A stretch of 64,000 bases of DNA, taken from NCBI RefSeq assembly GCF_054482525.1, contig NZ_CM137006.1; one strand, given 5' to 3'. Below, in pieces: positions 519 to 44,462 of the stretch. Under the pieces are notes generated by a model. That model worked only from the letters and a program-made list of their open reading frames with translations. It did no database searches and was not told where the DNA came from. Both the position numbers and the translations under genes were made by a program. Within the stretch, counting starts at the first letter, position 1. The number at the start of each line of letters is the position of its first letter.

Positions 519-809
519 ATGGCTGACTTCTACATAACAGCAGTAAAATATGATGAAAATCATGAACATATCGTTAAGGTTAAAACACGGCAACGAGTTG
601 ATGGTAAGGTTAAAGCACCAAGCATCAATTCTCGCCAATTTATCGTCGAATTGATTAATACCGGAAAGGTATCATTTTGGACTGGATTACAGGATAGCGA
701 AGGACGATGGGGAAAAGGGGCTGACGTGACCGTAACCTCTACTGGTTTCCTGACTACATCACCAAATAATACCACTCGGGATAACCTCGGCGAATTGCCT
801 GAATTTTAA
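519..809 (+). CDS. Hypothetical small protein (96 aa), possibly DUF3892-like
   Basis: AAAGG Shine-Dalgarno 8 nt upstream; the DUF3892 assignment rests on a recalled pattern only (N-terminal Y-I-T-x-V, H-x-H-I, C-terminal DNL-x-x-LPE) and needs an HMM search. Confidence 0.5.
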   Translation: MADFYITAVKYDENHEHIVKVKTRQRVDGKVKAPSINSRQFIVELINTGKVSFWTGLQDSEGRWGKGADVTVTSTGFLTTSPNNTTRDNLGELPEF

Positions 810-1526: not shown

Positions 1527-2579
1527 ATGATCGACTGGTTTACCGGAATCCTGCCTTGCACACACCGACCGTTACCGGCCGGTAGCGTCGTCAGCGTTGA
1601 TGCTGATGGTGCGGTGGAGTGGGAAACAGTAAAACGGTTGACCGTTCGCGGTTCGTATGAATCAACGATGAAAGTAAGATCTGTTGGATCTGATGGCGAA
1701 GGTCGGGCAACACATCTTTATATTGATGGGAATCCTTCAAAATTCCTTCAGGGACATTCTGTTATTGGTTCTGATGATTTGCAGGGACTGGTATTAACCG
1801 TATACGCAAGAATACTGGCATTACTTCATATTCCTCATGATCTCCCGTCATATCGTCAGGTAATGTCTGGTCAGTATAAGATTTCCCGTATTGATATTAA
1901 TTATATGTATTCATTGTCAACACTGGAAAATGTCCGTGCATGGTTATATGCCGCAGAATTTAAAGCGAAAACTCGCCATGGTCGCGCCTGTGGTAAAGGT
2001 GGCACTGTTTACTTAGGGAAAAACTCCCGTCGTTGGAGCCTGAAATTTTATTCAAAATATGATGAGCATATATCTGGCAAAAAAGGGCACCAGATGGCAG
2101 ACGAATTCGTTAAAGCAGGTTTACTGGACTGGTCAAAAGATAAATTACGCATTGAATTAACATTAAGAACAACTGAATTAATTGATTTGAATCTTACGCT
2201 TGGTAATAGCTGGAATATTCAGACGCCCAATAAATTATTCTCTGACTATGTAGGGAGAATAGAAATGAATCAAAATACTATATTAACTGATGAAAAAATA
2301 ATTAATCTCCCAAGAAAAATACAGTCTACATATTTATTGTGGAAGCAGGGCGCGAACATGAAAGAGATGTTACCGAAACCTACATTCTACCGACACCGTA
2401 AAGAATTACTTTCTTTCGGAATAGATATTAACTTTTATTGTGAGTCACCGGATTCTAATAACGTTGTTCCGTTGGTTCGTATTCTTGAAGCCAAACCGGC
2501 CAAAATTCCATCATGGTTTTATGAGAAAGGTTTAATTTTCGATCATAACCGTATTTCACATGCCAGTAACTGGTATTAA
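1527..2579 (+). CDS. gII: Rolling-circle replication initiator, gene II protein homologue
   Basis: N-terminus MIDWF and C-terminal block NNVVPLVR align with M13 gIIp as recalled; alternative in-frame ATG at 1494 (ORF-track start). Confidence 0.85.
   Translation: MIDWFTGILPCTHRPLPAGSVVSVDADGAVEWETVKRLTVRGSYESTMKVRSVGSDGEGRATHLYIDGNPSKFLQGHSVIGSDDLQGLVLTVYARILALLHIPHDLPSYRQVMSGQYKISRIDINYMYSLSTLENVRAWLYAAEFKAKTRHGRACGKGGTVYLGKNSRRWSLKFYSKYDEHISGKKGHQMADEFVKAGLLDWSKDKLRIELTLRTTELIDLNLTLGNSWNIQTPNKLFSDYVGRIEMNQNTILTDEKIINLPRKIQSTYLLWKQGANMKEMLPKPTFYRHRKELLSFGIDINFYCESPDSNNVVPLVRILEAKPAKIPSWFYEKGLIFDHNRISHASNWY
2265..2579 (+). CDS. gX: Gene X-like protein, in-frame internal restart within gII
   Basis: Internal ATG preceded by GGGAG (9 nt); MNQNT start aligns with the M13 gX start (EGDSMNIYDD versus GRIEMNQNT). 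Confidence 0.55.
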   Translation: MNQNTILTDEKIINLPRKIQSTYLLWKQGANMKEMLPKPTFYRHRKELLSFGIDINFYCESPDSNNVVPLVRILEAKPAKIPSWFYEKGLIFDHNRISHASNWY

Positions 2580-2590
2580 AGGAGAGTGAT

Positions 2591-2908
2591 ATGTCTAATT
2601 ATGGTCTTTTTGTAAAAGGTAAAATGCTTGGTGCTCGCCAGCGTAATAAGGTCAATGGTCAGGGATACTATAATGAAATTGGTATTGGCTTAGAGATCCC
2701 TGATGGTTTTGGCGGCACTAAGCAAGACCAGATTATTATTCGTGTTTCTCAGGCTCTTGTTAATGCCGGTGTAATGAATCAGGCAAATAATCTTATCGGT
2801 AAGTTAGTCCAGATACCTGTATATGTTCGTGTCTGGTCAATGGAAGGTAGAGAAGGAGTAACTTATAATATTTCATCTGACGGTGGAATCACTGAAATAA
2901 AAGGTTAA
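2591..2908 (+). CDS. gV: Putative ssDNA-binding protein, gene V analogue
   Basis: 105-aa ORF immediately after gII with AAGGAGAG Shine-Dalgarno; Ff-like position; only weak motif resemblance to M13 gVp. Confidence 0.55.
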   Translation: MSNYGLFVKGKMLGARQRNKVNGQGYYNEIGIGLEIPDGFGGTKQDQIIIRVSQALVNAGVMNQANNLIGKLVQIPVYVRVWSMEGREGVTYNISSDGGITEIKG

Positions 2909-2910
2909 AT

Positions 2911-2997
2911 ATGGCTGATGTTATACAAATATTAATAGCGTCAGGCATTGTTATCTCTTTTGGCCTCGGCGCAATTACTGCGGGGGTTTTTCGTTAA
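2911..2997 (+). CDS. gVII: Minor coat protein, gene VII analogue (28 aa)
   Basis: MADVIQILIASGIVISFGLGAITAGVFR; hydrophobic; C-terminal half resembles M13 gVIIp; too short for the ORF track. Confidence 0.5.
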   Translation: MADVIQILIASGIVISFGLGAITAGVFR

Positions 2998-3092
2998 TGT
3001 ATATAGCTTATTTCTTCGGGGCTTATACCTTTGGTTTTGCCCTTTTCTACGCGGTCGGTTCATTTAAATCATTTTCTGACCGATTAATGTAA
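2997..3092 (+). CDS. gIX: Minor coat protein, gene IX analogue (31 aa)
   Basis: MYIAYFFGAYTFGFALFYAVGSFKSFSDRLM; start overlaps the gVII stop by 1 nt (TAATG), as is typical for Ff VII/IX coupling. Confidence 0.45.
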   Translation: MYIAYFFGAYTFGFALFYAVGSFKSFSDRLM

Positions 3093-3116
3093 TGTAACTT
3101 TAATGGAGTTATTTAT

Positions 3117-3359
3117 ATGAAAGTTTTGTCTTTTGTTAAATCTAAAATTGCAGTAGCTTCAACAGCGCTTTTTGTTTCTGCGAGTTCTTTTGCGGCAGCT
3201 GAGTCTACAGGCGGGACTGATTATGCAGGTCAGGCAATGGATGCATTACTGACTCAGGCAAATGATCTTATTGGTAAAGTATGGCCTGTCGTTGTTGCTG
3301 TGGTTGGTGCTGGCCTTGCCATTCGTATTTTTAAAAAATTCGCTTCTAAAGCAGTTTAA
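3117..3359 (+). CDS. gVIII: Major coat protein precursor
   Basis: 80 aa; signal peptide ending SFAAAE, acidic N-terminus, hydrophobic core, basic C-terminus [12 protein letters not shown] (inovirus major-coat signature); GGAG Shine-Dalgarno. Confidence 0.85.
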
Positions 3360-3369
3360 AATTCACTCA

Positions 3370-3392
3370 GGGGCATTTGTTGCCCCTTTATT
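3370..3392 (+). terminator. Rho-independent terminator after the major coat gene (recurs per copy)
   Basis: GGGGCA-tttgt-TGCCCC followed by TTTATT; same position as the strong terminator after gVIII in Ff phages. Confidence 0.65.
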
Positions 3393-3405
3393 AAATTGGG
3401 TTATT

Positions 3406-4650
3406 ATGAAAAGGAAAATATTAATTACTTTCTCTATTTTTATTTCTTCTTTTTCATATGCTGATTCATGGGAAAGCATTACTAAATCTACTTTTCAAAG
3501 CTCTGCATATGCTGAAAGTAAGCAAATAACCAACCAAGATGGTACTAAACAAACTGTTTATTATATTGATGCAACCATGCAGGCTTCTTCCTGTCAGGGA
3601 GCTAAAGACAGTGCTCAGGTTGTTTTTAATCAGGTTAAACCAACTTATGAGGGAATGTGGCCTAACTCTGAATTCCGTCTTGTATTTTCTGACGCTTGTA
3701 CTTACAGCGACTCTCCAGGCCAGAAAGATAAATACTGGACTTTAACTGCTTATATTATAGGTGATATTCAACGATCTATTCCTGATGAAAAACCTTCCGA
3801 GCCTACGCCTGAAGAGATTTGTGAAGCTAAACCCCCCGAAGAAGGTGTATTCAATAATGTCTATTCTTATGACGGTGATCGTTATATTTATTATAACGGT
3901 TGTGAATATGAGGCCACTGGCGTCATTGTTTGCCAGAGTGATAGCACTGTTTGTGCTGCGACATGGAAGCCTACCGGAACTGTAGCCGCACCTTCAGATA
4001 AGCCTTCTTCTCCTGTTGGCGATGGCGGTGATACTGGAGGCGGGGATACGGGTGATGGTGATACCGGTGGAGGTGATACAGGCGGTGGTAACCCAAGTGG
4101 CAGTTCTGGCGGTGGTAATGGCTCAAGTATCACCAAAGGAGATATTCAGTCAGCTATCGAAGGTGCTTCACCTAAAATTGCCAGTGAGATTCATGATAAG
4201 TTAACAGAAAAAGATACCTCATCTGATGATAAAAAGTCGGCTGATGAACAGACTAAAAATAATATAAATCGTCTTGTTGACTCTATAAATAACCTTACTC
4301 GCGGAGCCGGACGTTTTGCTGATCCTTCTGGCGGCGATTCCCGTTATGGGGAGGGGGGGTCTGAATTAGATAGCGCTTCCACTTTAGCTGAATCTGAATT
4401 AGGAATTGCAAAGGATTCTCATGGTGCGTTATGGGAGGCTTTCTTAAATAAAGGTGCTATGTTGCCCAATTTACCTAATGGTAATGGTTGTTCTGATTTT
4501 ATTATTTTCCCCGGAGAGGTTTATCAGATCGATATTGGCTGCGATAAATTACTGACTATTAAAAATGCTCTTTCATGGGTTTTTTATTGCCTTACGTTCT
4601 GGTATGTATTTACTTCTTTAACTTCATTGCTTCGTAAAGGTGGTGAGTGA
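3406..4650 (+). CDS. gIII: Minor coat / adsorption protein pIII
   Basis: Signal peptide [19 protein letters not shown], Cys-containing N-terminal domains, Gly/Asp-rich linker repeats, C-terminal membrane anchor; ORF-track ORF 3262-4650 trimmed to the first in-frame ATG after the gVIII terminator. Confidence 0.8.
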
Positions 4651-4991
4651 TGCCTTTATTATTAGGTATTCCTGCATTGTTGCGTTTTCTTATTGGTCTT
4701 GTTCCTTTACTTATTGGCTATGCGGCAAGTTTTTTAGCTCGGCTTGCAACCAAAACAGGTTTAATAGCGGTTGCATTGGTTGCGCTAATTACAACAACTG
4801 TTACGCTTTTAATGCAGTACCTTGCTGAGGTCATGTATATCGGGTTACCCGCTGATTTTTCACATCTAATGGCGTCTGTACTGCCTGACCATTTTCAGGC
4901 GTGTGTTAACGTTATTATGGTTACTCGTATCAGTGTTTTTGTTTTCGATTTAAAACAAAAATTTCTTGATTATGCAAACAGGGTGATTTAA
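4647..4991 (+). CDS. gVI: Minor coat protein pVI
   Basis: 114 aa, hydrophobic; [15 protein letters not shown] aligns with M13 pVI MPVLLGIPLLLRFL. Confidence 0.8.
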
Positions 4992-6086
4992 ATGGCGGTT
5001 CATGTAGTAACAGGCAAATTAGGCTCAGGCAAGACACTGGTTAGTGTTTCCAGAATACAGGAAAGACTGGCTAAGGGTTGTCCTGTTGCCACTAATCTTG
5101 ATCTTAAATTGCATAATATGCCTATGGTTGGGCGTTATGCTAAAAAAACGCGCGTTATTCGTGTTCCTGATAAGCCTTCATTAAATGATTTACTGGCTAT
5201 TGGTATTGGAAATACATCTTACGATGAATCCCGCAATGGCCTTTTAGTGCTTGATGAATGTGGTACTTGGTTTAATTCCCGTTCATGGGGTGATAAAGAC
5301 AGACAACCTGTTATTGACTGGTTTTTACATGCCCGTAAATTAGGTTGGGATATTATTTTTTTGATTCAGGATATTTCGATAATGGATAAGCAAGCTCGTC
5401 TGGCACTTGCTGAACATGTTGTTTATTGTCGCCGTTCAGATAAATTAAACATTCCTTTTATTGGCTCTATTATAAATTTAGTTTCAGGAGCGCGATTTTC
5501 TTTACCAAAGGTACACTTTGGTATTGTTAAATATGGTGATAACGTTAATTCAATTACTGTTGATAAATGGATATACACCGGAAAATCATTATATTCCGCC
5601 TACAATACAAAACAGGTTTTTACTGATAACTATCCGCATGGTGCTTATTCTCTTTTACCGCCATTTATTACACATGGCCAGTTTTCTGTTCACAAAGGAC
5701 TTAATTATTATATGCGCCTCACGAAAATTTATTTCCGAAAATCAAACCGATTAATATTAATGCTTTCATTTTTTGCCTTTGGGCTTGGGCTTGGCTTCTG
5801 GCTACAATCTGGTAAGAATGCCGATGAAATTTCGGCTATTAAATCAGTTCATGCTGAACAGGTGAGGGCGGTAACACCTGACAGTACCAGCGATTTACCG
5901 AGACTTTCTATTGATTCTTTCTCTCAGCTTGGTTTTGATGTTTCTGTTACGTTTGTTGACGCTAAGGGTATGAAGTACCAGTATTTTGATTTAATTAAAG
6001 ATGGTTATTCCGTTGATATTAAAGATGCCTGCCGAATTGTTATCAGAAAAGGCCATTATTTACAAAGCGTCACCTGTCAGGAGTAA
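4992..6086 (+). CDS. gI: Assembly ATPase pI (Zot-like)
   Basis: 364 aa; Walker A GKLGSGKT; extensive similarity to M13 pI along the length as recalled. Confidence 0.9.
   Translation: MAVHVVTGKLGSGKTLVSVSRIQERLAKGCPVATNLDLKLHNMPMVGRYAKKTRVIRVPDKPSLNDLLAIGIGNTSYDESRNGLLVLDECGTWFNSRSWGDKDRQPVIDWFLHARKLGWDIIFLIQDISIMDKQARLALAEHVVYCRRSDKLNIPFIGSIINLVSGARFSLPKVHFGIVKYGDNVNSITVDKWIYTGKSLYSAYNTKQVFTDNYPHGAYSLLPPFITHGQFSVHKGLNYYMRLTKIYFRKSNRLILMLSFFAFGLGLGFWLQSGKNADEISAIKSVHAEQVRAVTPDSTSDLPRLSIDSFSQLGFDVSVTFVDAKGMKYQYFDLIKDGYSVDIKDACRIVIRKGHYLQSVTCQE
5712..6086 (+). CDS. gXI: pXI-like protein, in-frame internal restart within gI
   Basis: Internal Met at codon 241 (MRLTKIYFRK), the same codon position as M13 pXI (MKLTKIYLKK). 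Confidence 0.5.
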   Translation: MRLTKIYFRKSNRLILMLSFFAFGLGLGFWLQSGKNADEISAIKSVHAEQVRAVTPDSTSDLPRLSIDSFSQLGFDVSVTFVDAKGMKYQYFDLIKDGYSVDIKDACRIVIRKGHYLQSVTCQE

Positions 6087-6093
6087 TATTACT

Positions 6094-7359
6094 ATGCGTT
6101 TATTTTGCATTGCCATCTTATTCATTTATTCTTTTTGTGTTTCTGCTGAAACTGTTAATCTTAATAATTCATCCGTTCGTTCATTTGTCCAGTGGTATTC
6201 ATCAAAAACTGGTAAGCCTGTTATTGTTAACCCCGATGTTAAAGGCTCCGTAACAGTATTTAATGCTGATGTTAATCCCACAAATATTGATGACTTTTTC
6301 AAATCTGTTCTGAATGCTAATGGATTTGTCATGCTTTCTGGTAATCCTGCGGTAGTATCTTTGCCGTCAAAATTACCGTCACAGATGGCATCAGACCCTG
6401 ATGATTCCGATAATCAGTCTTATGACTCTTTTCCGCCAGAGCCATCCTGTCAGCCAGCGCCTGTGGCGCTCACTGTCAGAAATTTTAAGCTGACAAAAGT
6501 ACGAGCGTCTGATGTTCAGCAACTGGTTAAAATTTATCTGGATTCGAATGGCGGGGGTAATGTCGTGGATTATCCCGGCAATAACTCCCTGATTGTATCT
6601 GCGCCTGACGAGCTACTGCCTGTTCTGTCCAATTTCATTAACTCAGTTGATGTTGCCCGTGATCAGGTACTCATTCAATCGCTCATGTTTGAAACCAGTT
6701 TGTCTGATGGTGTTGATTTGTCATTTGCAGCTGGCTCTGCATCCGGCCATAAGGTGGCGGGGGGTTTTAATACTTCTGCGCTGGGTAATGCTCTTTCTAC
6801 GGTGGGCGGCTCTTTTGGTATTTTTGATGGTAACGTGTTGGCGCTGTCTCTGCGTGCTGTCCAGAGTAATTCACGCTCTAAGGTGATTTCAACACCGCGC
6901 ATTCTTACTCAGTCCGGTCAGACTGGTTATATTTCCGTAGGTAAGAATGTGCCGTTTATCACAGGAAAGGTAACGGGTGAATCTGCTGGGGTAAATAATC
7001 CGTTTCAGACTATCGAACGTCATGATGTTGGCGTTTCTCTCAAGGTAACGCCTGTTGTCATGGGGAACGGGCAATTAGTTTTGACCATCGATACCCGCGC
7101 CGATTCAATCAGCAATGATGACCAAGCATCTGATATTATTACTAATCAGCGCCAGATTCAGACCACTGTTCAGATTAAGGATGGCCAGACTCTCTTACTT
7201 GGTGGGTTGATTGATTCATCATCCAGCAATGCTGACCGTTCTGTACCATTTATCAGCAAAATTCCGGTAATTGGCTGGCTTTTCAGGAGTAAAGCTGACA
7301 GTAATGAGCAACGCATTATGTATGTCCTGCTGACTGCTCATATTATTCGTGCGCTTTGA
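6094..7359 (+). CDS. gIV: Secretin pIV (outer-membrane export channel)
   Basis: 421 aa from the ATG with AGGAG Shine-Dalgarno; signal peptide MRLFCIAILFIYSFCVSA; secretin motifs conserved with M13 pIV (e.g. GQNVPFITG-like, VPFISKIPVIG). Confidence 0.9.
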   Translation: MRLFCIAILFIYSFCVSAETVNLNNSSVRSFVQWYSSKTGKPVIVNPDVKGSVTVFNADVNPTNIDDFFKSVLNANGFVMLSGNPAVVSLPSKLPSQMASDPDDSDNQSYDSFPPEPSCQPAPVALTVRNFKLTKVRASDVQQLVKIYLDSNGGGNVVDYPGNNSLIVSAPDELLPVLSNFINSVDVARDQVLIQSLMFETSLSDGVDLSFAAGSASGHKVAGGFNTSALGNALSTVGGSFGIFDGNVLALSLRAVQSNSRSKVISTPRILTQSGQTGYISVGKNVPFITGKVTGESAGVNNPFQTIERHDVGVSLKVTPVVMGNGQLVLTIDTRADSISNDDQASDIITNQRQIQTTVQIKDGQTLLLGGLIDSSSSNADRSVPFISKIPVIGWLFRSKADSNEQRIMYVLLTAHIIRAL

Positions 7360-7906: not shown

Positions 7907-8152
7907 TCAGACTTTAATCTTAACTACTTTTTCAGTGCCGGTCATAAAACTAACCAGCTTCTTGCGGCCATCGGGATACTCTTTAATGACACATCCTTCT
8001 GGCGTATTTTTTTCAGCGTAATAAATAGGGACGCCACTAAGAAGACAGGCTCGGGCTGCTTCACCGACATCATGTTCTAGTTGCTGCTCGAAAACAGTCA
8101 AGAACTCTGCTTCCTCTGATGGTGTCATTTCAGCTAAATATGATAAGTCCAT
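7907..8152 (-). CDS. orf81, hypothetical accessory protein
   Basis: 81-aa ORF between the intergenic hairpin region and the att site; the 20-bp-stem hairpin at 7800-7844 is followed by a T-run on the minus strand and could terminate it. Confidence 0.45.
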   Translation of the reverse strand: MDLSYLAEMTPSEEAEFLTVFEQQLEHDVGEAARACLLSGVPIYYAEKNTPEGCVIKEYPDGRKKLVSFMTGTEKVVKIKV

Positions 8153-8354: not shown

Positions 8355-8387
8355 GGTGCGCATAATGTGCTACACGTTATGTTGAAA
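8355..8387 (+). other. Phage att (dif-like) site at copy junction: XerC arm GGTGCGCATAA, 11-bp spacer TGTGCTACACG, XerD-like arm TTATGTTGAAA
   Basis: Perfect match to the XerC-binding arm of E. coli dif; best XerD-like arm (9 of 11) is displaced 5 bp relative to dif geometry. Confidence 0.8.
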
Positions 8388-8420
8388 AGGCCGCTGCGAA
8401 AATAGAACCCCGCAGCGGCC
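8385..8420 (-). terminator. Rho-independent terminator for the minus-strand orf98-orf110 cassette, abutting the att site (recurs per copy)
   Basis: GGCCGCTGCG-N12-CGCAGCGGCC with a T-run on the minus strand (8385-8388). Confidence 0.55.
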
Positions 8421-8454
8421 TCTTTAGCATAACGTCATTGTGCGAACCAATTAT

Positions 8455-8787
8455 TTATTTTTTTGATTTTTGAGTTGCCTCAATTTCTTTTTTTAAACCA
8501 TGAAGGTTTTTATGACCGGTTCCCTTTGGTTGTAACTGTCCCCTTTGTAACTTACTGATTCTATTTCCTCTTTCTGATATTACTATTTCATCATTCAGGG
8601 ATTTTTCAATCAATGCATACAACGCATTGAATACTTTGATGTTTTCTGATTCCCTCAACTCTTCGAGGATTTTACTTAGTTGTAGAAAGTCATTAATTAA
8701 ACTAACGCCATTTTTAGGATCGTAAAACTCCTCATGTCGTTTTAACATCTTTGCAATCTTTTTTTGCTTATCTGTTGCGTTTGACAT
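8455..8787 (-). CDS. orf110, hypothetical accessory protein (second gene of the minus-strand cassette)
   Basis: 110 aa, charged, basic C-terminal tail, no TM segment; 23-bp gap after orf98; followed by a hairpin plus T-run terminator at 8385-8420. Confidence 0.55.
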   Translation of the reverse strand: MSNATDKQKKIAKMLKRHEEFYDPKNGVSLINDFLQLSKILEELRESENIKVFNALYALIEKSLNDEIVISERGNRISKLQRGQLQPKGTGHKNLHGLKKEIEATQKSKK

Positions 8788-10269: not shown

Positions 10270-11322
10270 ATGATCGACTGGTTTACCGGAATCCTGCCTT
10301 GCACACACCGACCGTTACCGGCCGGTAGCGTCGTCAGCGTTGATGCTGATGGTGCGGTGGAGTGGGAAACAGTAAAACGGTTGACCGTTCGCGGTTCGTA
10401 TGAATCAACGATGAAAGTAAGATCTGTTGGATCTGATGGCGAAGGTCGGGCAACACATCTTTATATTGATGGGAATCCTTCAAAATTCCTTCAGGGACAT
10501 TCTGTTATTGGTTCTGATGATTTGCAGGGACTGGTATTAACCGTATACGCAAGAATACTGGCATTACTTCATATTCCTCATGATCTCCCGTCATATCGTC
10601 AGGTAATGTCTGGTCAGTATAAGATTTCCCGTATTGATATTAATTATATGTATTCATTGTCAACACTGGAAAATGTCCGTGCATGGTTATATGCCGCAGA
10701 ATTTAAAGCGAAAACTCGCCATGGTCGCGCCTGTGGTAAAGGTGGCACTGTTTACTTAGGGAAAAACTCCCGTCGTTGGAGCCTGAAATTTTATTCAAAA
10801 TATGATGAGCATATATCTGGCAAAAAAGGGCACCAGATGGCAGACGAATTCGTTAAAGCAGGTTTACTGGACTGGTCAAAAGATAAATTACGCATTGAAT
10901 TAACATTAAGAACAACTGAATTAATTGATTTGAATCTTACGCTTGGTAATAGCTGGAATATTCAGACGCCCAATAAATTATTCTCTGACTATGTAGGGAG
11001 AATAGAAATGAATCAAAATACTATATTAACTGATGAAAAAATAATTAATCTCCCAAGAAAAATACAGTCTACATATTTATTGTGGAAGCAGGGCGCGAAC
11101 ATGAAAGAGATGTTACCGAAACCTACATTCTACCGACACCGTAAAGAATTACTTTCTTTCGGAATAGATATTAACTTTTATTGTGAGTCACCGGATTCTA
11201 ATAACGTTGTTCCGTTGGTTCGTATTCTTGAAGCCAAACCGGCCAAAATTCCATCATGGTTTTATGAGAAAGGTTTAATTTTCGATCATAACCGTATTTC
11301 ACATGCCAGTAACTGGTATTAA
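10270..11322 (+). CDS. gII: Replication initiator gII homologue (copy 2)
   Basis: Repeat of 1527-2579 at +8743; nested gX-like restart at 11008. Confidence 0.85.
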   Translation: MIDWFTGILPCTHRPLPAGSVVSVDADGAVEWETVKRLTVRGSYESTMKVRSVGSDGEGRATHLYIDGNPSKFLQGHSVIGSDDLQGLVLTVYARILALLHIPHDLPSYRQVMSGQYKISRIDINYMYSLSTLENVRAWLYAAEFKAKTRHGRACGKGGTVYLGKNSRRWSLKFYSKYDEHISGKKGHQMADEFVKAGLLDWSKDKLRIELTLRTTELIDLNLTLGNSWNIQTPNKLFSDYVGRIEMNQNTILTDEKIINLPRKIQSTYLLWKQGANMKEMLPKPTFYRHRKELLSFGIDINFYCESPDSNNVVPLVRILEAKPAKIPSWFYEKGLIFDHNRISHASNWY

Positions 11323-13734: not shown

Positions 13735-14829
13735 ATGGCGGTTCATGTAGTAACAGGCAAATTAGGCTCAGGCAAGACACTGGTTAGTGTTTCCAGAATA
13801 CAGGAAAGACTGGCTAAGGGTTGTCCTGTTGCCACTAATCTTGATCTTAAATTGCATAATATGCCTATGGTTGGGCGTTATGCTAAAAAAACGCGCGTTA
13901 TTCGTGTTCCTGATAAGCCTTCATTAAATGATTTACTGGCTATTGGTATTGGAAATACATCTTACGATGAATCCCGCAATGGCCTTTTAGTGCTTGATGA
14001 ATGTGGTACTTGGTTTAATTCCCGTTCATGGGGTGATAAAGACAGACAACCTGTTATTGACTGGTTTTTACATGCCCGTAAATTAGGTTGGGATATTATT
14101 TTTTTGATTCAGGATATTTCGATAATGGATAAGCAAGCTCGTCTGGCACTTGCTGAACATGTTGTTTATTGTCGCCGTTCAGATAAATTAAACATTCCTT
14201 TTATTGGCTCTATTATAAATTTAGTTTCAGGAGCGCGATTTTCTTTACCAAAGGTACACTTTGGTATTGTTAAATATGGTGATAACGTTAATTCAATTAC
14301 TGTTGATAAATGGATATACACCGGAAAATCATTATATTCCGCCTACAATACAAAACAGGTTTTTACTGATAACTATCCGCATGGTGCTTATTCTCTTTTA
14401 CCGCCATTTATTACACATGGCCAGTTTTCTGTTCACAAAGGACTTAATTATTATATGCGCCTCACGAAAATTTATTTCCGAAAATCAAACCGATTAATAT
14501 TAATGCTTTCATTTTTTGCCTTTGGGCTTGGGCTTGGCTTCTGGCTACAATCTGGTAAGAATGCCGATGAAATTTCGGCTATTAAATCAGTTCATGCTGA
14601 ACAGGTGAGGGCGGTAACACCTGACAGTACCAGCGATTTACCGAGACTTTCTATTGATTCTTTCTCTCAGCTTGGTTTTGATGTTTCTGTTACGTTTGTT
14701 GACGCTAAGGGTATGAAGTACCAGTATTTTGATTTAATTAAAGATGGTTATTCCGTTGATATTAAAGATGCCTGCCGAATTGTTATCAGAAAAGGCCATT
14801 ATTTACAAAGCGTCACCTGTCAGGAGTAA
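13735..14829 (+). CDS. gI: Assembly ATPase pI (copy 2)
   Basis: Repeat at +8743; nested pXI-like restart at 14455. Confidence 0.9.
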   Translation: MAVHVVTGKLGSGKTLVSVSRIQERLAKGCPVATNLDLKLHNMPMVGRYAKKTRVIRVPDKPSLNDLLAIGIGNTSYDESRNGLLVLDECGTWFNSRSWGDKDRQPVIDWFLHARKLGWDIIFLIQDISIMDKQARLALAEHVVYCRRSDKLNIPFIGSIINLVSGARFSLPKVHFGIVKYGDNVNSITVDKWIYTGKSLYSAYNTKQVFTDNYPHGAYSLLPPFITHGQFSVHKGLNYYMRLTKIYFRKSNRLILMLSFFAFGLGLGFWLQSGKNADEISAIKSVHAEQVRAVTPDSTSDLPRLSIDSFSQLGFDVSVTFVDAKGMKYQYFDLIKDGYSVDIKDACRIVIRKGHYLQSVTCQE

Positions 14830-19012: not shown

Positions 19013-20065
19013 ATGATCGACTGGTTTACCGGAATCCTGCCTTGCACACACCGACCGTTACCGGCCGGTAGCGTCGTCAGCGTTGATGCTGATGGTGCGG
19101 TGGAGTGGGAAACAGTAAAACGGTTGACCGTTCGCGGTTCGTATGAATCAACGATGAAAGTAAGATCTGTTGGATCTGATGGCGAAGGTCGGGCAACACA
19201 TCTTTATATTGATGGGAATCCTTCAAAATTCCTTCAGGGACATTCTGTTATTGGTTCTGATGATTTGCAGGGACTGGTATTAACCGTATACGCAAGAATA
19301 CTGGCATTACTTCATATTCCTCATGATCTCCCGTCATATCGTCAGGTAATGTCTGGTCAGTATAAGATTTCCCGTATTGATATTAATTATATGTATTCAT
19401 TGTCAACACTGGAAAATGTCCGTGCATGGTTATATGCCGCAGAATTTAAAGCGAAAACTCGCCATGGTCGCGCCTGTGGTAAAGGTGGCACTGTTTACTT
19501 AGGGAAAAACTCCCGTCGTTGGAGCCTGAAATTTTATTCAAAATATGATGAGCATATATCTGGCAAAAAAGGGCACCAGATGGCAGACGAATTCGTTAAA
19601 GCAGGTTTACTGGACTGGTCAAAAGATAAATTACGCATTGAATTAACATTAAGAACAACTGAATTAATTGATTTGAATCTTACGCTTGGTAATAGCTGGA
19701 ATATTCAGACGCCCAATAAATTATTCTCTGACTATGTAGGGAGAATAGAAATGAATCAAAATACTATATTAACTGATGAAAAAATAATTAATCTCCCAAG
19801 AAAAATACAGTCTACATATTTATTGTGGAAGCAGGGCGCGAACATGAAAGAGATGTTACCGAAACCTACATTCTACCGACACCGTAAAGAATTACTTTCT
19901 TTCGGAATAGATATTAACTTTTATTGTGAGTCACCGGATTCTAATAACGTTGTTCCGTTGGTTCGTATTCTTGAAGCCAAACCGGCCAAAATTCCATCAT
20001 GGTTTTATGAGAAAGGTTTAATTTTCGATCATAACCGTATTTCACATGCCAGTAACTGGTATTAA
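19013..20065 (+). CDS. gII: Replication initiator gII homologue (copy 3)
   Basis: Repeat at +17486; nested gX-like restart at 19751. Confidence 0.85.
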   Translation: MIDWFTGILPCTHRPLPAGSVVSVDADGAVEWETVKRLTVRGSYESTMKVRSVGSDGEGRATHLYIDGNPSKFLQGHSVIGSDDLQGLVLTVYARILALLHIPHDLPSYRQVMSGQYKISRIDINYMYSLSTLENVRAWLYAAEFKAKTRHGRACGKGGTVYLGKNSRRWSLKFYSKYDEHISGKKGHQMADEFVKAGLLDWSKDKLRIELTLRTTELIDLNLTLGNSWNIQTPNKLFSDYVGRIEMNQNTILTDEKIINLPRKIQSTYLLWKQGANMKEMLPKPTFYRHRKELLSFGIDINFYCESPDSNNVVPLVRILEAKPAKIPSWFYEKGLIFDHNRISHASNWY

Positions 20066-22477: not shown

Positions 22478-23572
22478 ATGGCGGTTCATGTAGTAACAGG
22501 CAAATTAGGCTCAGGCAAGACACTGGTTAGTGTTTCCAGAATACAGGAAAGACTGGCTAAGGGTTGTCCTGTTGCCACTAATCTTGATCTTAAATTGCAT
22601 AATATGCCTATGGTTGGGCGTTATGCTAAAAAAACGCGCGTTATTCGTGTTCCTGATAAGCCTTCATTAAATGATTTACTGGCTATTGGTATTGGAAATA
22701 CATCTTACGATGAATCCCGCAATGGCCTTTTAGTGCTTGATGAATGTGGTACTTGGTTTAATTCCCGTTCATGGGGTGATAAAGACAGACAACCTGTTAT
22801 TGACTGGTTTTTACATGCCCGTAAATTAGGTTGGGATATTATTTTTTTGATTCAGGATATTTCGATAATGGATAAGCAAGCTCGTCTGGCACTTGCTGAA
22901 CATGTTGTTTATTGTCGCCGTTCAGATAAATTAAACATTCCTTTTATTGGCTCTATTATAAATTTAGTTTCAGGAGCGCGATTTTCTTTACCAAAGGTAC
23001 ACTTTGGTATTGTTAAATATGGTGATAACGTTAATTCAATTACTGTTGATAAATGGATATACACCGGAAAATCATTATATTCCGCCTACAATACAAAACA
23101 GGTTTTTACTGATAACTATCCGCATGGTGCTTATTCTCTTTTACCGCCATTTATTACACATGGCCAGTTTTCTGTTCACAAAGGACTTAATTATTATATG
23201 CGCCTCACGAAAATTTATTTCCGAAAATCAAACCGATTAATATTAATGCTTTCATTTTTTGCCTTTGGGCTTGGGCTTGGCTTCTGGCTACAATCTGGTA
23301 AGAATGCCGATGAAATTTCGGCTATTAAATCAGTTCATGCTGAACAGGTGAGGGCGGTAACACCTGACAGTACCAGCGATTTACCGAGACTTTCTATTGA
23401 TTCTTTCTCTCAGCTTGGTTTTGATGTTTCTGTTACGTTTGTTGACGCTAAGGGTATGAAGTACCAGTATTTTGATTTAATTAAAGATGGTTATTCCGTT
23501 GATATTAAAGATGCCTGCCGAATTGTTATCAGAAAAGGCCATTATTTACAAAGCGTCACCTGTCAGGAGTAA
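22478..23572 (+). CDS. gI: Assembly ATPase pI (copy 3)
   Basis: Repeat at +17486; nested pXI-like restart at 23198. Confidence 0.9.
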   Translation: MAVHVVTGKLGSGKTLVSVSRIQERLAKGCPVATNLDLKLHNMPMVGRYAKKTRVIRVPDKPSLNDLLAIGIGNTSYDESRNGLLVLDECGTWFNSRSWGDKDRQPVIDWFLHARKLGWDIIFLIQDISIMDKQARLALAEHVVYCRRSDKLNIPFIGSIINLVSGARFSLPKVHFGIVKYGDNVNSITVDKWIYTGKSLYSAYNTKQVFTDNYPHGAYSLLPPFITHGQFSVHKGLNYYMRLTKIYFRKSNRLILMLSFFAFGLGLGFWLQSGKNADEISAIKSVHAEQVRAVTPDSTSDLPRLSIDSFSQLGFDVSVTFVDAKGMKYQYFDLIKDGYSVDIKDACRIVIRKGHYLQSVTCQE

Positions 23573-27755: not shown

Positions 27756-28808
27756 ATGATCGACTGGTTTACCGGAATCCTGCCTTGCACACACCGACCG
27801 TTACCGGCCGGTAGCGTCGTCAGCGTTGATGCTGATGGTGCGGTGGAGTGGGAAACAGTAAAACGGTTGACCGTTCGCGGTTCGTATGAATCAACGATGA
27901 AAGTAAGATCTGTTGGATCTGATGGCGAAGGTCGGGCAACACATCTTTATATTGATGGGAATCCTTCAAAATTCCTTCAGGGACATTCTGTTATTGGTTC
28001 TGATGATTTGCAGGGACTGGTATTAACCGTATACGCAAGAATACTGGCATTACTTCATATTCCTCATGATCTCCCGTCATATCGTCAGGTAATGTCTGGT
28101 CAGTATAAGATTTCCCGTATTGATATTAATTATATGTATTCATTGTCAACACTGGAAAATGTCCGTGCATGGTTATATGCCGCAGAATTTAAAGCGAAAA
28201 CTCGCCATGGTCGCGCCTGTGGTAAAGGTGGCACTGTTTACTTAGGGAAAAACTCCCGTCGTTGGAGCCTGAAATTTTATTCAAAATATGATGAGCATAT
28301 ATCTGGCAAAAAAGGGCACCAGATGGCAGACGAATTCGTTAAAGCAGGTTTACTGGACTGGTCAAAAGATAAATTACGCATTGAATTAACATTAAGAACA
28401 ACTGAATTAATTGATTTGAATCTTACGCTTGGTAATAGCTGGAATATTCAGACGCCCAATAAATTATTCTCTGACTATGTAGGGAGAATAGAAATGAATC
28501 AAAATACTATATTAACTGATGAAAAAATAATTAATCTCCCAAGAAAAATACAGTCTACATATTTATTGTGGAAGCAGGGCGCGAACATGAAAGAGATGTT
28601 ACCGAAACCTACATTCTACCGACACCGTAAAGAATTACTTTCTTTCGGAATAGATATTAACTTTTATTGTGAGTCACCGGATTCTAATAACGTTGTTCCG
28701 TTGGTTCGTATTCTTGAAGCCAAACCGGCCAAAATTCCATCATGGTTTTATGAGAAAGGTTTAATTTTCGATCATAACCGTATTTCACATGCCAGTAACT
28801 GGTATTAA
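27756..28808 (+). CDS. gII: Replication initiator gII homologue (copy 4)
   Basis: Repeat at +26229; nested gX-like restart at 28494. Confidence 0.85.
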   Translation: MIDWFTGILPCTHRPLPAGSVVSVDADGAVEWETVKRLTVRGSYESTMKVRSVGSDGEGRATHLYIDGNPSKFLQGHSVIGSDDLQGLVLTVYARILALLHIPHDLPSYRQVMSGQYKISRIDINYMYSLSTLENVRAWLYAAEFKAKTRHGRACGKGGTVYLGKNSRRWSLKFYSKYDEHISGKKGHQMADEFVKAGLLDWSKDKLRIELTLRTTELIDLNLTLGNSWNIQTPNKLFSDYVGRIEMNQNTILTDEKIINLPRKIQSTYLLWKQGANMKEMLPKPTFYRHRKELLSFGIDINFYCESPDSNNVVPLVRILEAKPAKIPSWFYEKGLIFDHNRISHASNWY

Positions 28809-31220: not shown

Positions 31221-32315
31221 ATGGCGGTTCATGTAGTAACAGGCAAATTAGGCTCAGGCAAGACACTGGTTAGTGTTTCCAGAATACAGGAAAGACTGGC
31301 TAAGGGTTGTCCTGTTGCCACTAATCTTGATCTTAAATTGCATAATATGCCTATGGTTGGGCGTTATGCTAAAAAAACGCGCGTTATTCGTGTTCCTGAT
31401 AAGCCTTCATTAAATGATTTACTGGCTATTGGTATTGGAAATACATCTTACGATGAATCCCGCAATGGCCTTTTAGTGCTTGATGAATGTGGTACTTGGT
31501 TTAATTCCCGTTCATGGGGTGATAAAGACAGACAACCTGTTATTGACTGGTTTTTACATGCCCGTAAATTAGGTTGGGATATTATTTTTTTGATTCAGGA
31601 TATTTCGATAATGGATAAGCAAGCTCGTCTGGCACTTGCTGAACATGTTGTTTATTGTCGCCGTTCAGATAAATTAAACATTCCTTTTATTGGCTCTATT
31701 ATAAATTTAGTTTCAGGAGCGCGATTTTCTTTACCAAAGGTACACTTTGGTATTGTTAAATATGGTGATAACGTTAATTCAATTACTGTTGATAAATGGA
31801 TATACACCGGAAAATCATTATATTCCGCCTACAATACAAAACAGGTTTTTACTGATAACTATCCGCATGGTGCTTATTCTCTTTTACCGCCATTTATTAC
31901 ACATGGCCAGTTTTCTGTTCACAAAGGACTTAATTATTATATGCGCCTCACGAAAATTTATTTCCGAAAATCAAACCGATTAATATTAATGCTTTCATTT
32001 TTTGCCTTTGGGCTTGGGCTTGGCTTCTGGCTACAATCTGGTAAGAATGCCGATGAAATTTCGGCTATTAAATCAGTTCATGCTGAACAGGTGAGGGCGG
32101 TAACACCTGACAGTACCAGCGATTTACCGAGACTTTCTATTGATTCTTTCTCTCAGCTTGGTTTTGATGTTTCTGTTACGTTTGTTGACGCTAAGGGTAT
32201 GAAGTACCAGTATTTTGATTTAATTAAAGATGGTTATTCCGTTGATATTAAAGATGCCTGCCGAATTGTTATCAGAAAAGGCCATTATTTACAAAGCGTC
32301 ACCTGTCAGGAGTAA
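31221..32315 (+). CDS. gI: Assembly ATPase pI (copy 4)
   Basis: Repeat at +26229; nested pXI-like restart at 31941. Confidence 0.9.
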   Translation: MAVHVVTGKLGSGKTLVSVSRIQERLAKGCPVATNLDLKLHNMPMVGRYAKKTRVIRVPDKPSLNDLLAIGIGNTSYDESRNGLLVLDECGTWFNSRSWGDKDRQPVIDWFLHARKLGWDIIFLIQDISIMDKQARLALAEHVVYCRRSDKLNIPFIGSIINLVSGARFSLPKVHFGIVKYGDNVNSITVDKWIYTGKSLYSAYNTKQVFTDNYPHGAYSLLPPFITHGQFSVHKGLNYYMRLTKIYFRKSNRLILMLSFFAFGLGLGFWLQSGKNADEISAIKSVHAEQVRAVTPDSTSDLPRLSIDSFSQLGFDVSVTFVDAKGMKYQYFDLIKDGYSVDIKDACRIVIRKGHYLQSVTCQE

Positions 32316-34583: not shown

Positions 34584-34611
34584 GGTGCGCATAATGTATA
34601 TTATGTTAAAT
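34584..34611 (+). other. dif: Chromosomal dif site (XerC arm, 6-bp central region, XerD arm)
   Basis: Exact 28-mer GGTGCGCATAATGTATATTATGTTAAAT, the canonical E. coli dif as recalled; phage sequence ends within or next to the central region. Confidence 0.93.
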
Positions 34612-34779
34612 GGAATTTGAGTGATGCGAAGCGATTTTCCAGTCGTCGTTATTACTTCAGGGTTCCAGAACATAAAGCCTCTCCTCTTTCATGATTGGCC
34701 TGTGCATACCGGATATAGGCTGGCAGGTTTGCCGTTTGCCGCATCTTCCCTGCGTTGAAGAGTCAGGCTGGCAAACTGC

Positions 34780-35034
34780 GTGCAAATGAACACCCCCTCT
34801 TTCTATCAACACTTCAGACAGCTTGCGGGAATGAGTTCACTCCGGTATCAGAAATGGCTACGCCTCAATGAAGCCAGGCGACTGATGCTGAATGAACATT
34901 ACGATGTCACCACTGCAGCCTATGCTGTCGGTTACGAAAGCTTATCCCATTTCAGTCGGGAATATTCGCGGATATTTGGAGAGTCACCTAAGAGAGATAT
35001 TACTAAATTAAGAAAGCCTCTTGGTCAGCTTTAA
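34780..35034 (+). pseudogene. yneL: AraC-family HTH C-terminal fragment (yneL-like remnant)
   Basis: 84-aa ORF matching only the C-terminal HTH-containing part of AraC/XylS regulators; position next to dif matches the K-12 yneL pseudogene as recalled. Confidence 0.55.
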
Positions 35035-35467
35035 TAAACCCTGCACTTATCTGGTTAGAGCATTTCGGCATTAGTTTCACTATGCAAACATTAACCATAG
35101 CTAATGATTTATAGCCATATAAACCATTAGTCGCTCTTGACTTTTCCTGACACTTCCCTTGTTCGCAATAATATTCTGTTTAGTCGCTGTTTATAAATAT
35201 CATGCATAATGAAATCGTCATGTTATTTAGCGACATAAAATGTCTTTGCAAATACTCTCTACAACAAGTGCTGCAATAAACTTGTTGTGATTAGGTGTCC
35301 TTGTAATTTAAAGATATTATCGTTCTTCGTGAAATGTAATAACCCTGGAAACTATATTCTCAGGGCAACAACCAATTAAGAATGATTCTTGTTTTATAAG
35401 CAATAACAGAATGACTTAATTGTTAACTCTCTTTATTCAGCTACTTAAATATAAATTTTGGAGAATT

Positions 35468-36031
35468 ATGAAACTCAAACATGTCGGTATGATTGTCGTT
35501 TCTGTGTTGGCGATGTCGTCTGCTGCGGTAAGCGCAGCCGAGGGTGATGAATCAGTAACGACCACTGTTAATGGCGGTGTTATTCATTTTAAAGGTGAAG
35601 TGGTAAATGCCGCTTGTGCGATTGATTCAGAATCAATGAACCAAACGGTTGAGCTGGGTCAGGTTCGTTCTTCTCGCCTGGCAAAAGCGGGTGACCTCAG
35701 CTCTGCCGTTGGCTTCAATATCAAGCTGAATGATTGTGATACCAATGTTTCCAGTAATGCAGCTGTTGCATTCCTGGGTACTACTGTCACCAGTAATGAC
35801 GATACCTTAGCGCTGCAGAGTTCAGCGGCAGGCTCTGCCCAAAATGTCGGTATTCAAATTTTGGACCGTACGGGGGAGGTATTAATACTTGATGGTGCCA
35901 CTTTTAGCGCTAAAACCGACTTGATTGATGGCACGAATATACTGCCATTCCAGGCTCGTTATATTGCTCTCGGGCAGTCAGTAGCTGGTACTGCAAACGC
36001 TGATGCGACCTTCAAAGTTCAATATCTATAA
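35468..36031 (+). CDS. Fimbrial major subunit (FimA-like), F9-type chaperone-usher operon
   Basis: 187 aa from the ATG with GGAG Shine-Dalgarno; signal peptide ending AVSAAEG; type 1 fimbrial subunit features (Cys pair, C-terminal beta-strand ending FKVQYL). Confidence 0.85.
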
Positions 36032-36384
36032 TTCAATCTTAAGATGGCTATACGTCATCTGAAATTGAAACAGGGTGTGTGTTGCATGGCTACGCACACC
36101 CGAGCAATTCACCAATGTTCATCTCATTATTAATGAGGAATAGTTTGTGTTTTGGAGCGGTATGAAAAAATCACATAATATCTAAACGATCAATAAACAA
36201 CAGTAGTTAAACTTACTGTTATTTAAAATATTTACTTTGTAGCAAGGTTTTCCTATTAAAAGAGAACCAACATTTATTACAAACGCATTAAGTCTGGAAA
36301 CCCGGCGAGTCGCCAATGTATTAGCAACATTTACCGATTGTCTGATGTAACGGTTTCCCCGCTTATCCTCTTAACACATGGAGA

Positions 36385-37104
36385 ATGCATCAGATGCAAA
36401 CTACGCGTACCCCCTACTCTATTTCCTTTATGGCGACAGTGTTACTTTTATTGCTCTTTGCTTGCCATAGCACCGTTGCCAACGCAGCTGTCGCACTGGG
36501 TGCGACGCGGGTAATTTATCCGGCAAACCAGAAACAGGTTTTATTGCCTGTCACGAATAATGATCCTGCCAGTGTCTATCTCATTCAGTCATGGATAGAA
36601 AATGCAGGTGACCAAAAAGACACCCAGTTTGTCATTACGCCACCGCTTTTTTCCATGCAAGGTAAAAAAGAGAATACGCTGCGGATAATCAACGCCACTA
36701 ATCATCAGTTACCAGGCGACCGTGAAAGCCTGTTCTGGGTTAATGTCAAAGCTATTCCTGCTATGGAAAAAGACCAGAAGAATGAGAATACATTACAGCT
36801 GGCAATTATTAGCCGCATAAAAATGTTTTATCGCCCCACGAACCTGGCAATGGCACCTGAAGAAGCGCCTGCAATGCTTCGGTTTCGTCGCAGCGGTAGC
36901 AAACTTACTCTTATTAATCCAACGCCCTACTTCATTACCGTAACAAATATGAAAGCAGGAAATAGCAATCTCCCAAATACCATGGTGCCGCCAAAAGGTG
37001 ATGTATCGGTGGATATCCCGCATGCTGCAACCGGGGATATCAGTTTTCAGACGATCAATGATTACGGTGCATTAACTCCGCGTATTAAGGCAACCATGCA
37101 GTAA
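36385..37104 (+). CDS. Periplasmic fimbrial chaperone (PapD/FimC-like)
   Basis: 239-aa ORF with signal peptide and chaperone N-domain motifs; start may be a downstream in-frame ATG (36394 or 36430). Confidence 0.8.
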   Translation: MHQMQTTRTPYSISFMATVLLLLLFACHSTVANAAVALGATRVIYPANQKQVLLPVTNNDPASVYLIQSWIENAGDQKDTQFVITPPLFSMQGKKENTLRIINATNHQLPGDRESLFWVNVKAIPAMEKDQKNENTLQLAIISRIKMFYRPTNLAMAPEEAPAMLRFRRSGSKLTLINPTPYFITVTNMKAGNSNLPNTMVPPKGDVSVDIPHAATGDISFQTINDYGALTPRIKATMQ

Positions 37105-37145
37105 ACCAGTGACCTAATTAATAATAAACTCAATCGGAATTAATA

Positions 37146-39797: not shown

Positions 39798-39810
39798 GGA
39801 ACAATAGATT

Positions 39811-40341
39811 ATGAAATACAATAACATTATTTTCCTCGGTTTATGTCTGGGGTTAACCACCTATTCTGCTTTATCCGCAGATAGCGTTATTAAAATTAGC
39901 GGGCGCGTCCTCGATTATGGCTGCACAGTCTCATCGGATTCGCTTAATTTTACCGTAGATCTCCAAAAAAACAGTGCCAGACAATTTCCAACGACCGGTA
40001 GCACAAGTCCAGCCGTCCCTTTTCAGATTACGTTAAGTGAATGCAGTAAAGGGACAACGGGGGTTCGGGTTGCATTTAACGGTATTGAGGATGCAGAAAA
40101 TAATACTCTGTTGAAACTGGATGAAGGAAGCAATACGGCCTCCGGTTTGGGTATAGAAATACTGGACGGAAATATGCGTCCGGTGAAATTGAATGACCTT
40201 CATGCCGGGATGCAGTGGATCCCACTGGTACCAGAACAGAACAATATTTTGCCTTACTCCGCTCGTCTGAAGTCAACTCAGAAGTCCGTCAATCCGGGAC
40301 TGGTGAGGGCTTCGGCAACCTTTACCCTTGAATTTCAATAA
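39811..40341 (+). CDS. ydeS: Fimbrial minor subunit
   Basis: 176 aa with signal peptide; size and order match K-12 ydeS. Confidence 0.8.
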   Translation: MKYNNIIFLGLCLGLTTYSALSADSVIKISGRVLDYGCTVSSDSLNFTVDLQKNSARQFPTTGSTSPAVPFQITLSECSKGTTGVRVAFNGIEDAENNTLLKLDEGSNTASGLGIEILDGNMRPVKLNDLHAGMQWIPLVPEQNNILPYSARLKSTQKSVNPGLVRASATFTLEFQ

Positions 40342-40353
40342 TCAGAGTCAGAT

Positions 40354-40857: not shown

Positions 40858-40916
40858 CGTCGATTCGATTTTCTTAGCCTCCTTTTTAAATCAATTTTTT
40901 AACCTTAGGATATATC

Positions 40917-44449: not shown

Positions 44450-44462
44450 TTCGCCTCCTCAT

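Follow-up and report, generated by a model that had tools for sequence, protein, structure and literature searches.

The filamentous prophage found in the window, a 64,000-nucleotide stretch of contig NZ_CM137006.1 (assembly GCF_054482525.1), very probably produces two extra in-frame proteins by independent internal initiation in the manner of the Ff phages, a reading that is given a probability of roughly 85%. What the sequences show is start codons, Shine-Dalgarno (SD) sequences, conservation in relatives, domain boundaries and, in the case of gX, constraint on synonymous sites; production of the two proteins and the roles proposed below are inferred. The two genes, gX nested in gII and gXI nested in gI (Table 1), are a correct but ordinary finding, a textbook feature of filamentous phages in a prophage group that has already been described. 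Both points are in print: gene X has been recognised inside gene II of the UPphi phages (Shapiro & Putonti 2020, PMC7307601), and internal gene XI starts are said to occur in most filamentous phages (PMC5408679).

Table 1. Features of the prophage discussed in the text (positions are those of the window).
Feature	Coordinates	Strand	Remarks
Repressor-like HTH gene	874-1320	minus	
gII, replication initiator pII, 350 aa	1527..2579	+	Pfam Phage_CRI, G2P_X_C; TIGR01629
Possible 8-bp hairpin	2236..2261	+	Arms 2236-2243 and 2254-2261
gX Shine-Dalgarno AGGGAG	2252..2257	+	Gly243 codon GGG and Arg244 codon AGA
gX, within gII (same frame), putative product pX, 104 aa	2265..2579	+	Conserved ATG, domains
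gX, identical repeats	11008-11322, 19751-20065, 28494-28808		
gI, assembly ATPase pI (Zot family), 364 aa	4992..6086	+	Pfam Zot, phrog_1675
Weak SD-like AAAGGA	5694..5699	+	Spacer of 12 nt to the gXI start
gXI, within gI (same frame), putative product pXI, 124 aa	5712..6086	+	Column of M13 Met241
gXI, identical repeats	14455-14829, 23198-23572, 31941-32315		

Identity of the prophage

The resident phage is a UPphi-group filamentous prophage (a Lineavirus-like inovirus) inserted as tandem copies at the E. coli dif site. The array has a period of 8743 nt, with 3.96 identical copies ending in dif, and at least four 100% identical tandem copies are present; the dif flanking the array is intact, and so are all the core genes of the prophage. 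Placement in the group was made against the published description of UPphi (PMC7307601), from which the following traits were found: tandem insertion at dif, gI, gIII, gIV and gVI of the IKe/I2-2 type, and gII and gV in common with YpfPhi/CUSphi. The accessory genes specific to the group are h1 and h2. A megablast search against a phage collection matched no Ff genome and aligned only 488 nt, to the gI of I2-2. Among 5426 complete E. coli genomes an identical prophage was absent, the best match reaching 97.8% over 94%. The 8.7-kb size and the tandem copies at dif had first suggested a YpfPhi/CUS identity, which was rejected: just gII and gV resemble the Ypf/CUS-type prophage of UTI89, with pII being 97% identical and pI 19%, and the architecture is that of the UPphi group.

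The probable gene X start within gII

The gII reading frame opens at TTG 1494, and its homologous start is ATG 1527, from which the protein begins MIDW; this is the start in RefSeq relatives and it is homologous to the MID- of M13, IKe and I2-2. The product matches Phage_CRI (PF05144, 1e-72) and G2P_X_C (PF05155, 3e-34) in Pfam and scores above the cutoff of TIGR01629 rep_II_X (7e-78), which identifies it as a rolling-circle initiator of the II/X family; in RefSeq, its relatives of 350 aa carry the annotation 'II/X family' protein. ATG 2265 lies in frame within gII, at codon 247 when counted from ATG 1527 and at codon 258 from TTG 1494, and the predicted pX is identical in sequence to the C-terminal domain of pII. 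The first-pass annotation had described a strong GGGAG SD at this site, and the description holds. ATG 2265 is preceded by gtAGGGAGaatagaaATG, in which GGGAG occupies 2253-2257 and leaves a spacer of 7 nt. The duplex with the 16S 3' end (-8.9 kcal/mol) is equal in strength to those of gV and gVI and ranks this start 3rd among the 199 ATGs that one phage unit has on its + strand. No sigma-70-like promoter for gX was found on the + strand between 1531 and 2265, where the count of sites stays at shuffle level, so that gX would depend on gII transcripts.

Comparison across 152 related viral loci provides strong support for gX as a putative nested in-frame gene. All relatives, the most distant of them at 39% identity, have ATG in the gX column. 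The Gly codon at the SD is GGG in 57 of the 63 relatives having Gly there, versus a background of 23%; where this Gly has been replaced, the SD is kept by means of AAG-AGG or AGG-AAA, and in 29 close relatives the two SD codons (GGG and AGA) are invariant. SD strength stands out from the in-gene background with a Fisher P of 6e-9; the value is approximate, the 15 representatives behind it being phylogenetically non-independent. Synonymous diversity in the 12 codons upstream of the start (235-246) is 0.034 as against 0.285 (permutation P<5e-5). SD energy, GGG codon bias and synonymous constraint thus point to a ribosome-binding site that is maintained by selection. The in-frame ATG stands at the N-terminal edge of the X domain and is homologous to known gX starts: phrog_17464 (profile length 100) matches pX residues 1-100 end to end (1e-51) and begins at Met247, G2P_X_C begins at pX residue 7 in Pfam, and in TIGR01629 the first residue of pX corresponds to profile position 299, in line with M13 codon 300. 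These comparisons show that gX is older than the split of Ff-type from I2-2/UPphi/Ypf-type replication modules.

Ribosomes would initiate at ATG 2265 on the gII mRNA by using the strong AGGGAG motif, giving rise to pX. Devoid of the nicking domain, pX may inhibit the initiation of plus-strand synthesis driven by pII, by analogy with f1, and this inhibition would limit the amplification of the replicative form (RF) and favor the accumulation of single-stranded DNA. Inhibition of pII-mediated initiation by pX has been described (PMC11962056).

A possible hairpin, with a minimum free energy of -7.4 kcal/mol, would pair the gX SD with the upstream anti-SD-like UAUUCUCU. In 29 relatives the codons of its arms are invariant and those of its loop variable, and SD sequestration to this extent occurs in only 5% of synonymous recodings, a borderline result that applies to the clade of the present phage only. 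The 80-nt fold is not unusual (z-score -0.44), and sequestration of the SD as a family-wide feature of gX found no support when compared with synonymous recodings (Fisher P 0.51). The hairpin is therefore weakly supported and clade-specific. It is doubtful that, in the UPphi/YpfPhi-type gII module, it makes initiation at gX await its opening by the ribosomes translating gII or by some other factor; if that were the case, synthesis of the inhibitor (pX) would have a built-in coupling to synthesis of the initiator (pII). Since pII is 86-97% identical at the amino acid level between UPphi and YpfPhi/CUSphi-type prophages, the pX of one phage might cross-inhibit the replication of the other.

The probable gene XI start within gI

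The gI stop codon ends at position 6086. The encoded protein matches Pfam Zot (PF05707, 7e-40) and phrog_1675 'morphogenesis (protein I of M13)' (3e-175), and it is an assembly ATPase of the pI/Zot type that bears Walker A and B motifs; Walker A G8-T15 (GKLGxGKT), D88/E89 and C347/C362 are invariant with respect to M13, IKe and If1. ATG 5712 is codon 241 of gI and lies 12 residues ahead of the hydrophobic stretch, just upstream of the transmembrane segment. In the MAFFT alignment its Met241 shares a column with Met241 of M13, Met241 of If1 and Met242 of IKe and I2-2, so that the agreement with M13 initially noticed extends from the codon number to the alignment. The column is occupied by ATG in 71 of 72 distinct relatives (51-100% identity), and the sole exception carries GTG, followed two codons later by an ATG. 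The predicted pXI is composed of a basic stretch, MRLTKIYFRKSNR, a hydrophobic segment, LILMLSFFAFGLGLGFWL (nt 5748-5801), and a periplasmic domain with two Cys, a pair that is conserved. In M13, M241 is the experimentally established start of gp11 and the M241L change abolishes gp11, a protein that is essential in f1 (PMC5408679). Conservation of the start codon and homology to the proven M13 site give moderate support to gXI as a likely nested in-frame gene. The two internal starts, ATG 2265 and ATG 5712, that the first-pass annotation had placed in gII and gI exist and are conserved in related phages beyond what chance would give; its proposal that they open nested, Ff-homologous genes X and XI is borne out strongly for the former and moderately for the latter.

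The putative ribosome-binding site of gXI is where a different explanation finds its arguments. The SD-like motif is weak and distant (-5.3 kcal/mol, 12-nt spacer), the ATG ranks 21st of 199, and no synonymous constraint was found upstream of gXI (P 0.2-0.3), so that Met241 could be conserved as a residue of a juxtamembrane motif instead of as a start. Met241 does open a strongly conserved protein motif, the block M-[RK]-x-T-[KR]-I-Y, which begins exactly at this residue and is preceded by 8 residues that vary. It is nevertheless improbable that, with gX being real, Met241 owes its conservation solely to its place in the juxtamembrane helix of pI and that hardly any distinct pXI, or none, is produced. 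The homologous codon of M13 is a proven start, the GTG of the single exceptional relative is also a start codon, and rare AGG, GGA and GGG codons recur upstream across clades; a purine-rich GG motif also recurs upstream in relatives, a modest enrichment with a Fisher P of 3e-5 among 15 non-independent representatives. In addition, the context of the gXI start is AU-rich and poorly structured (z +1.58), a situation that favors initiation. Displacement of the start to Met257 (ATG 5760) in the clade of the present phage was rejected as highly improbable: this Met is conserved here, in IKe and in I2-2 (column 267), but it has no SD (+0.3 kcal/mol), it is absent from M13 and If1, and its position within the hydrophobic segment would leave the product without an intact membrane anchor.

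Initiation at Met241 is the preferred reading. Ribosomes would start at ATG 5712, probably inefficiently, to yield a pXI that lacks the cytoplasmic ATPase domain of pI; left in it would be the basic helix next to the membrane, the transmembrane segment and the periplasmic domain. If f1 and M13 are a guide, pXI may co-assemble with pI in the inner membrane and contact the pIV secretin.

Activity of the prophage

The nested starts had also been taken as a sign of a functional phage as opposed to a decayed remnant. The opposite view would be that the prophage copies are silent or defective, in which case this strain would carry the nested starts as inherited sequence that serves no present function. 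In its favor, the sequence offers no proof of activity, a repressor-like HTH gene is present, and new infections with UPphi were not obtained by the authors who described these phages (PMC7307601). However, the preservation of every core gene, the identity of the tandem copies and the intact dif speak against silent copies, UPphi901 has been reported to be shed, with its DNA recovered in supernatants (PMC7307601), and across relatives the gX SD bears the marks of purifying selection; silence of the prophage has a low probability. A functional phage is plausible, and it is the intact core genes, the identical tandem copies, the intact dif and the shedding of UPphi901 that support it better, the nested starts themselves being a lesser support.

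Relevance for annotation

Both gX and gXI are unannotated in the RefSeq relatives of the prophage, and two probably essential phage proteins are consequently missing from gene lists. The main value of the findings is annotation, in a prophage group known from hundreds of clinical E. coli genomes. In addition, the comparisons provide a clean positive control for the detection of nested starts from sequence alone: the ATG is conserved, rare codons preserve the SD, and synonymous variation collapses locally. The current understanding of filamentous phage biology is left unchanged.

Comparison with known filamentous phages

Like gX here, gene X of the Ff phages (f1, M13 and fd; gII codon 300) lies in a gene of the TIGR01629 family with Phage_CRI and G2P_X_C domains, starts at an internal ATG at the beginning of the C-terminal domain and has a strong G-rich SD on the aligned Gly codon GGG (GAG-GGG-GAT in M13, GTA-GGG-AGA here). 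Nonetheless, pII is only 24% identical to that of M13 and IKe, pX has 104 aa versus 111 in Ff, and its Met comes 4 residues after the conserved Gly, compared with 3 in Ff. The BLASTP alignment with M13 pX runs from residue 36 on, the N-terminal 35 residues not being alignable, and in two alignments M13 Met300 and IKe Met301 are displaced from the gX Met by 2-3 columns; a third alignment puts them in its column. The claim that this start aligns with that of M13 is therefore approximate (0-3 columns off), given an offset of 1-3 residues in a weakly alignable stretch. The exact match is found in I2-2 (Lineavirus), whose gX is annotated at codon 247 of a 344-aa pII, with the same codon number and the same column as here; its pX is 51% identical from residue 1, the GRIEM context is common to both, and the pII proteins are 58% identical. 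The gX SD of I2-2 is weaker than the present one (GGGG, -5.9 kcal/mol) and, unlike the phage described here, I2-2 does not integrate.

Conservation down to the codon position, which the first-pass annotation had extended to both genes, is restricted to gI, where the internal Met is codon 241 here, in M13 and in If1, 242 in IKe and I2-2 and 239 in another clade; in gII it fails (247 versus 300/301). Nor does 'closely Ff-like' fit the replication and assembly module as a whole: the term suits assembly, with pI 55% identical to M13 and 64-65% to IKe and I2-2, and does not suit replication. These pII and pI values, together with the lack of a megablast match to any Ff genome, place the phage outside Ff proper (genus Inovirus: M13, f1 and fd). 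Ff gene XI starts at the same codon number and column of gI, and Ff pXI (gp11), which is essential for assembly, has the layout predicted here, with a basic helix, a transmembrane segment and a periplasmic domain with two conserved Cys. Its size is 108 aa, as compared with 124 aa here, the identity is only 28%, and the SD-like motif stands at about 7 nt in Ff and at 12 nt here. By description, the prophage corresponds to UPphi901 and the UPphi phages, which are inserted in tandem at the E. coli dif site, combine structural and assembly genes of the IKe/I2-2 type with gII and gV common to YpfPhi/CUSphi, and carry accessory ORFs around the core, as does the present prophage (PMC7307601).

A probable in-frame gene nested in gII

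The start codon of gX, ATG 2265, lies in the gII frame at codon 247 of the 350-aa protein (codon 258 if the ORF is numbered from its first TTG); both this start and that of gXI at ATG 5712 had been correctly placed in the first-pass annotation. The strong Shine-Dalgarno (SD) sequence that had been noted in gII is borne out, since AGGGAG precedes the ATG with a 7-nt spacer and pairs with the 16S 3' end at -8.9 kcal/mol, a value comparable to that of gV (-9.1) and the 3rd among the 199 ATG triplets on the plus strand of one unit. Conservation of the two internal methionines was likewise sustained by protein alignment. In 68 distinct sequences aligned from 80 viral-contig loci with pII relatives, the Met247 column holds ATG in every relative down to 39% identity, within the context Y-x-G-[RE]-[IL]-[ED]-M. 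For the conserved glycine four residues before the start, 57 of 63 sequences use GGG, versus 23% of all Gly codons in these genes, as do 11 of the 14 representatives below 80% identity that have Gly; where the glycine is replaced, AAG-AGG or AGG-AAA supply GAGG instead. The M13 gX SD (GAG-GGG-GAT) is made from the same aligned glycine. Compared with all in-frame positions of the same genes, the SD before gX is exceptional (Fisher P 6e-9, a value that is only approximate because the representatives are phylogenetically non-independent). Moreover, synonymous diversity averages 0.285 over the gene but drops to 0.034 in codons 235-246 (29 relatives, 85-100% identity; permutation P<5e-5).

Profile matches also delimit the predicted 104-aa pX: Pfam G2P_X_C starts at its residue 7, position 299 of TIGR01629 corresponds to residue 1, and the 100-residue profile phrog_17464 matches residues 1-100 end to end. 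In I2-2, the annotated gX begins at the identical codon, with 51% identity from residue 1. The proposed alignment with the M13 gX start holds only approximately, because the M13 and IKe starts lie 0-3 columns off Met247, varying with the alignment, and the BLASTP alignment of M13 pX to the window pX begins only at residue 36. On these sequence comparisons, the reading of gX as a nested gene is well supported.

The invariant stretch before gX exceeds the length that an SD requires. Among the 29 relatives, gII codons 237-239 (TTA TTC TCT) and 243-246 (GGG AGA ATA GAA) show no or almost no variation, and the intervening codons 240-242 are variable. The two invariant blocks (2236-2261) can pair in an 8-bp hairpin of -7.4 kcal/mol that is predicted to sequester the gX SD, and only 5% of synonymous recodings sequester it equally. 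The hairpin displays no covariation and no tendency to SD sequestration was seen in other clades (Fisher P 0.51). Sequestration of the gX SD by this hairpin is a weak, clade-specific hypothesis. No promoter-like site was found directly upstream of gX, which is therefore most likely read from gII transcripts.

A probable in-frame gene nested in gI

ATG 5712 is gI codon 241 and, as previously claimed, shares one alignment column with M13 Met241, and also with If1 Met241 and IKe/I2-2 Met242. Among 72 distinct pI relatives, 51-100% identical, ATG occupies this column in 71; the sole exception, IMGVR_UViG_2740892187_000001, has GTG at codon 239, preceded by a GAGG motif and followed two codons later by an ATG. 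The block M-[RK]-x-T-[KR]-I-Y-x-[KR]-[KR] opens exactly at Met241, and the eight preceding residues are freely variable. In the predicted pXI (124 aa), a basic stretch is followed by 18 hydrophobic residues and then by a periplasmic domain retaining C347 and C362, the counterparts of an essential M13 cysteine pair (PMC5408679). Its ribosome-binding site is weak (AAAGGA, 12 nt before the ATG, -5.3 kcal/mol; 21st of 199 ATGs), the RNA around the start is poorly structured (z +1.58), and upstream synonymous sites show no constraint (P 0.2-0.3). Purine-rich motifs from rare AGG/GGA/GGG codons recur before gXI in other clades (Fisher P 3e-5; representatives non-independent). It has been demonstrated that the M13 M241L mutation abolishes gp11, and an internal gI start has been stated for most filamentous phages (PMC5408679). 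Because of the weak ribosome-binding site and the unconstrained upstream synonymous sites, the case for gXI rests on start-codon conservation and on the homologous site proven in M13; the nested reading suggested by these sequences is reasonably supported.

Proposed roles of pX and pXI

By homology with f1/M13, pX would be the C-terminal domain of the replication initiator pII without the nicking domain, and would inhibit pII-mediated initiation at the plus-strand origin, a block that has been described (PMC11962056). Similarly, pXI, devoid of the ATPase domain, would join pI in an inner-membrane assembly that faces the pIV secretin, as it does in f1/M13 (PMC5408679; PMC8563730).

Organization of the prophage array

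Each unit has the canonical inovirus gene order, with the core genes flanked by accessory ORFs that presumably represent the variable accessory region reported in UPphi phages. gIX is preceded by a strong SD (-9.3 kcal/mol), and its start shares one base with the gVII stop (TAATG).

Predicted genes of one prophage unit
Feature	Position	Strand	Remark
Accessory ORF	68-364	minus	
Accessory ORF	519-809		DUF3892 protein
Repressor-like HTH gene	874-1320	minus	
gII	1527-2579		
gV	2591-2908		
gVII	2911-2997		
gIX	2997-3092		31 aa
gVIII	3117-3359		
gIII	3406-4650		
gVI	4650-4991		
gI	4992-6086		
gIV	6094-7359		
Accessory ORF	7907-8152	minus	
Accessory ORF	8455-8787	minus	

The tandem array spans positions 1-34597 with a period of 8743 bp, each base equalling the base 8743 downstream up to 34597. 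There are 3.96 visible copies, all 100% identical and the first truncated at the window edge, hence at least four in tandem. A perfect E. coli dif, GGTGCGCATAATGTATATTATGTTAAAT, closes the array at 34584-34611, adjoining the prophage. At the inter-copy junctions (8355-8385 and repeats), the XerC arm and TGT are retained and the sequence beyond them diverges; only the rightmost site is therefore a true dif. Directly past the dif-like junction site lies a 72-77 bp stretch (~8378-8453 and repeats) containing the hairpin GCCGCTGCG...CGCAGCGGC; matches to this stretch at ~90% identity occur in E. coli, in some chromosomes and in hundreds of plasmids. To the right of the array, host DNA with a fimbrial operon and ydeP (34598-44500) matches three E. 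coli strains (PCN033, SCU-102 and 19KM1776) at 100% identity; in PCN033, dif is free of any prophage. The exact phage is absent from the complete E. coli genomes in the collection (best match 97.8% over 94%).

Relationship to known filamentous phages

Nested gX and gXI are a textbook feature, and gene X was previously noted in UPphi phages (PMC7307601); in practical terms, both are missing from the RefSeq annotations of close relatives, as is gIX. The description of the replication and assembly module as closely Ff-like proved overstated for replication, whose module by pII identity (24% to M13/IKe, 58% to I2-2, 97% to the UTI89 prophage beside hipA) is of the I2-2/UPphi/Ypf type. For the window pI, identity is 64-65% with IKe/I2-2, 55-56% with M13/If1 and just 19% with the pI of the UTI89 prophage. 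The DNA match to the latter (~94%) is confined to the gII/gV region (1527-2908), about 20% of the phage; the structural genes of the two are unrelated. Judged from these identities, the phage is a modular mosaic of a gII/gV module and the remainder of the unit. The UPphi group integrates in tandem at dif (Shapiro & Putonti 2020, PMC7307601), with IKe/I2-2-like structural genes and genes II and V common to YpfPhi/CUSphi (PMC7307601). A YpfPhi/CUS identity is rejected, because the mosaic and the tandem dif integration in the window fit the description of UPphi.
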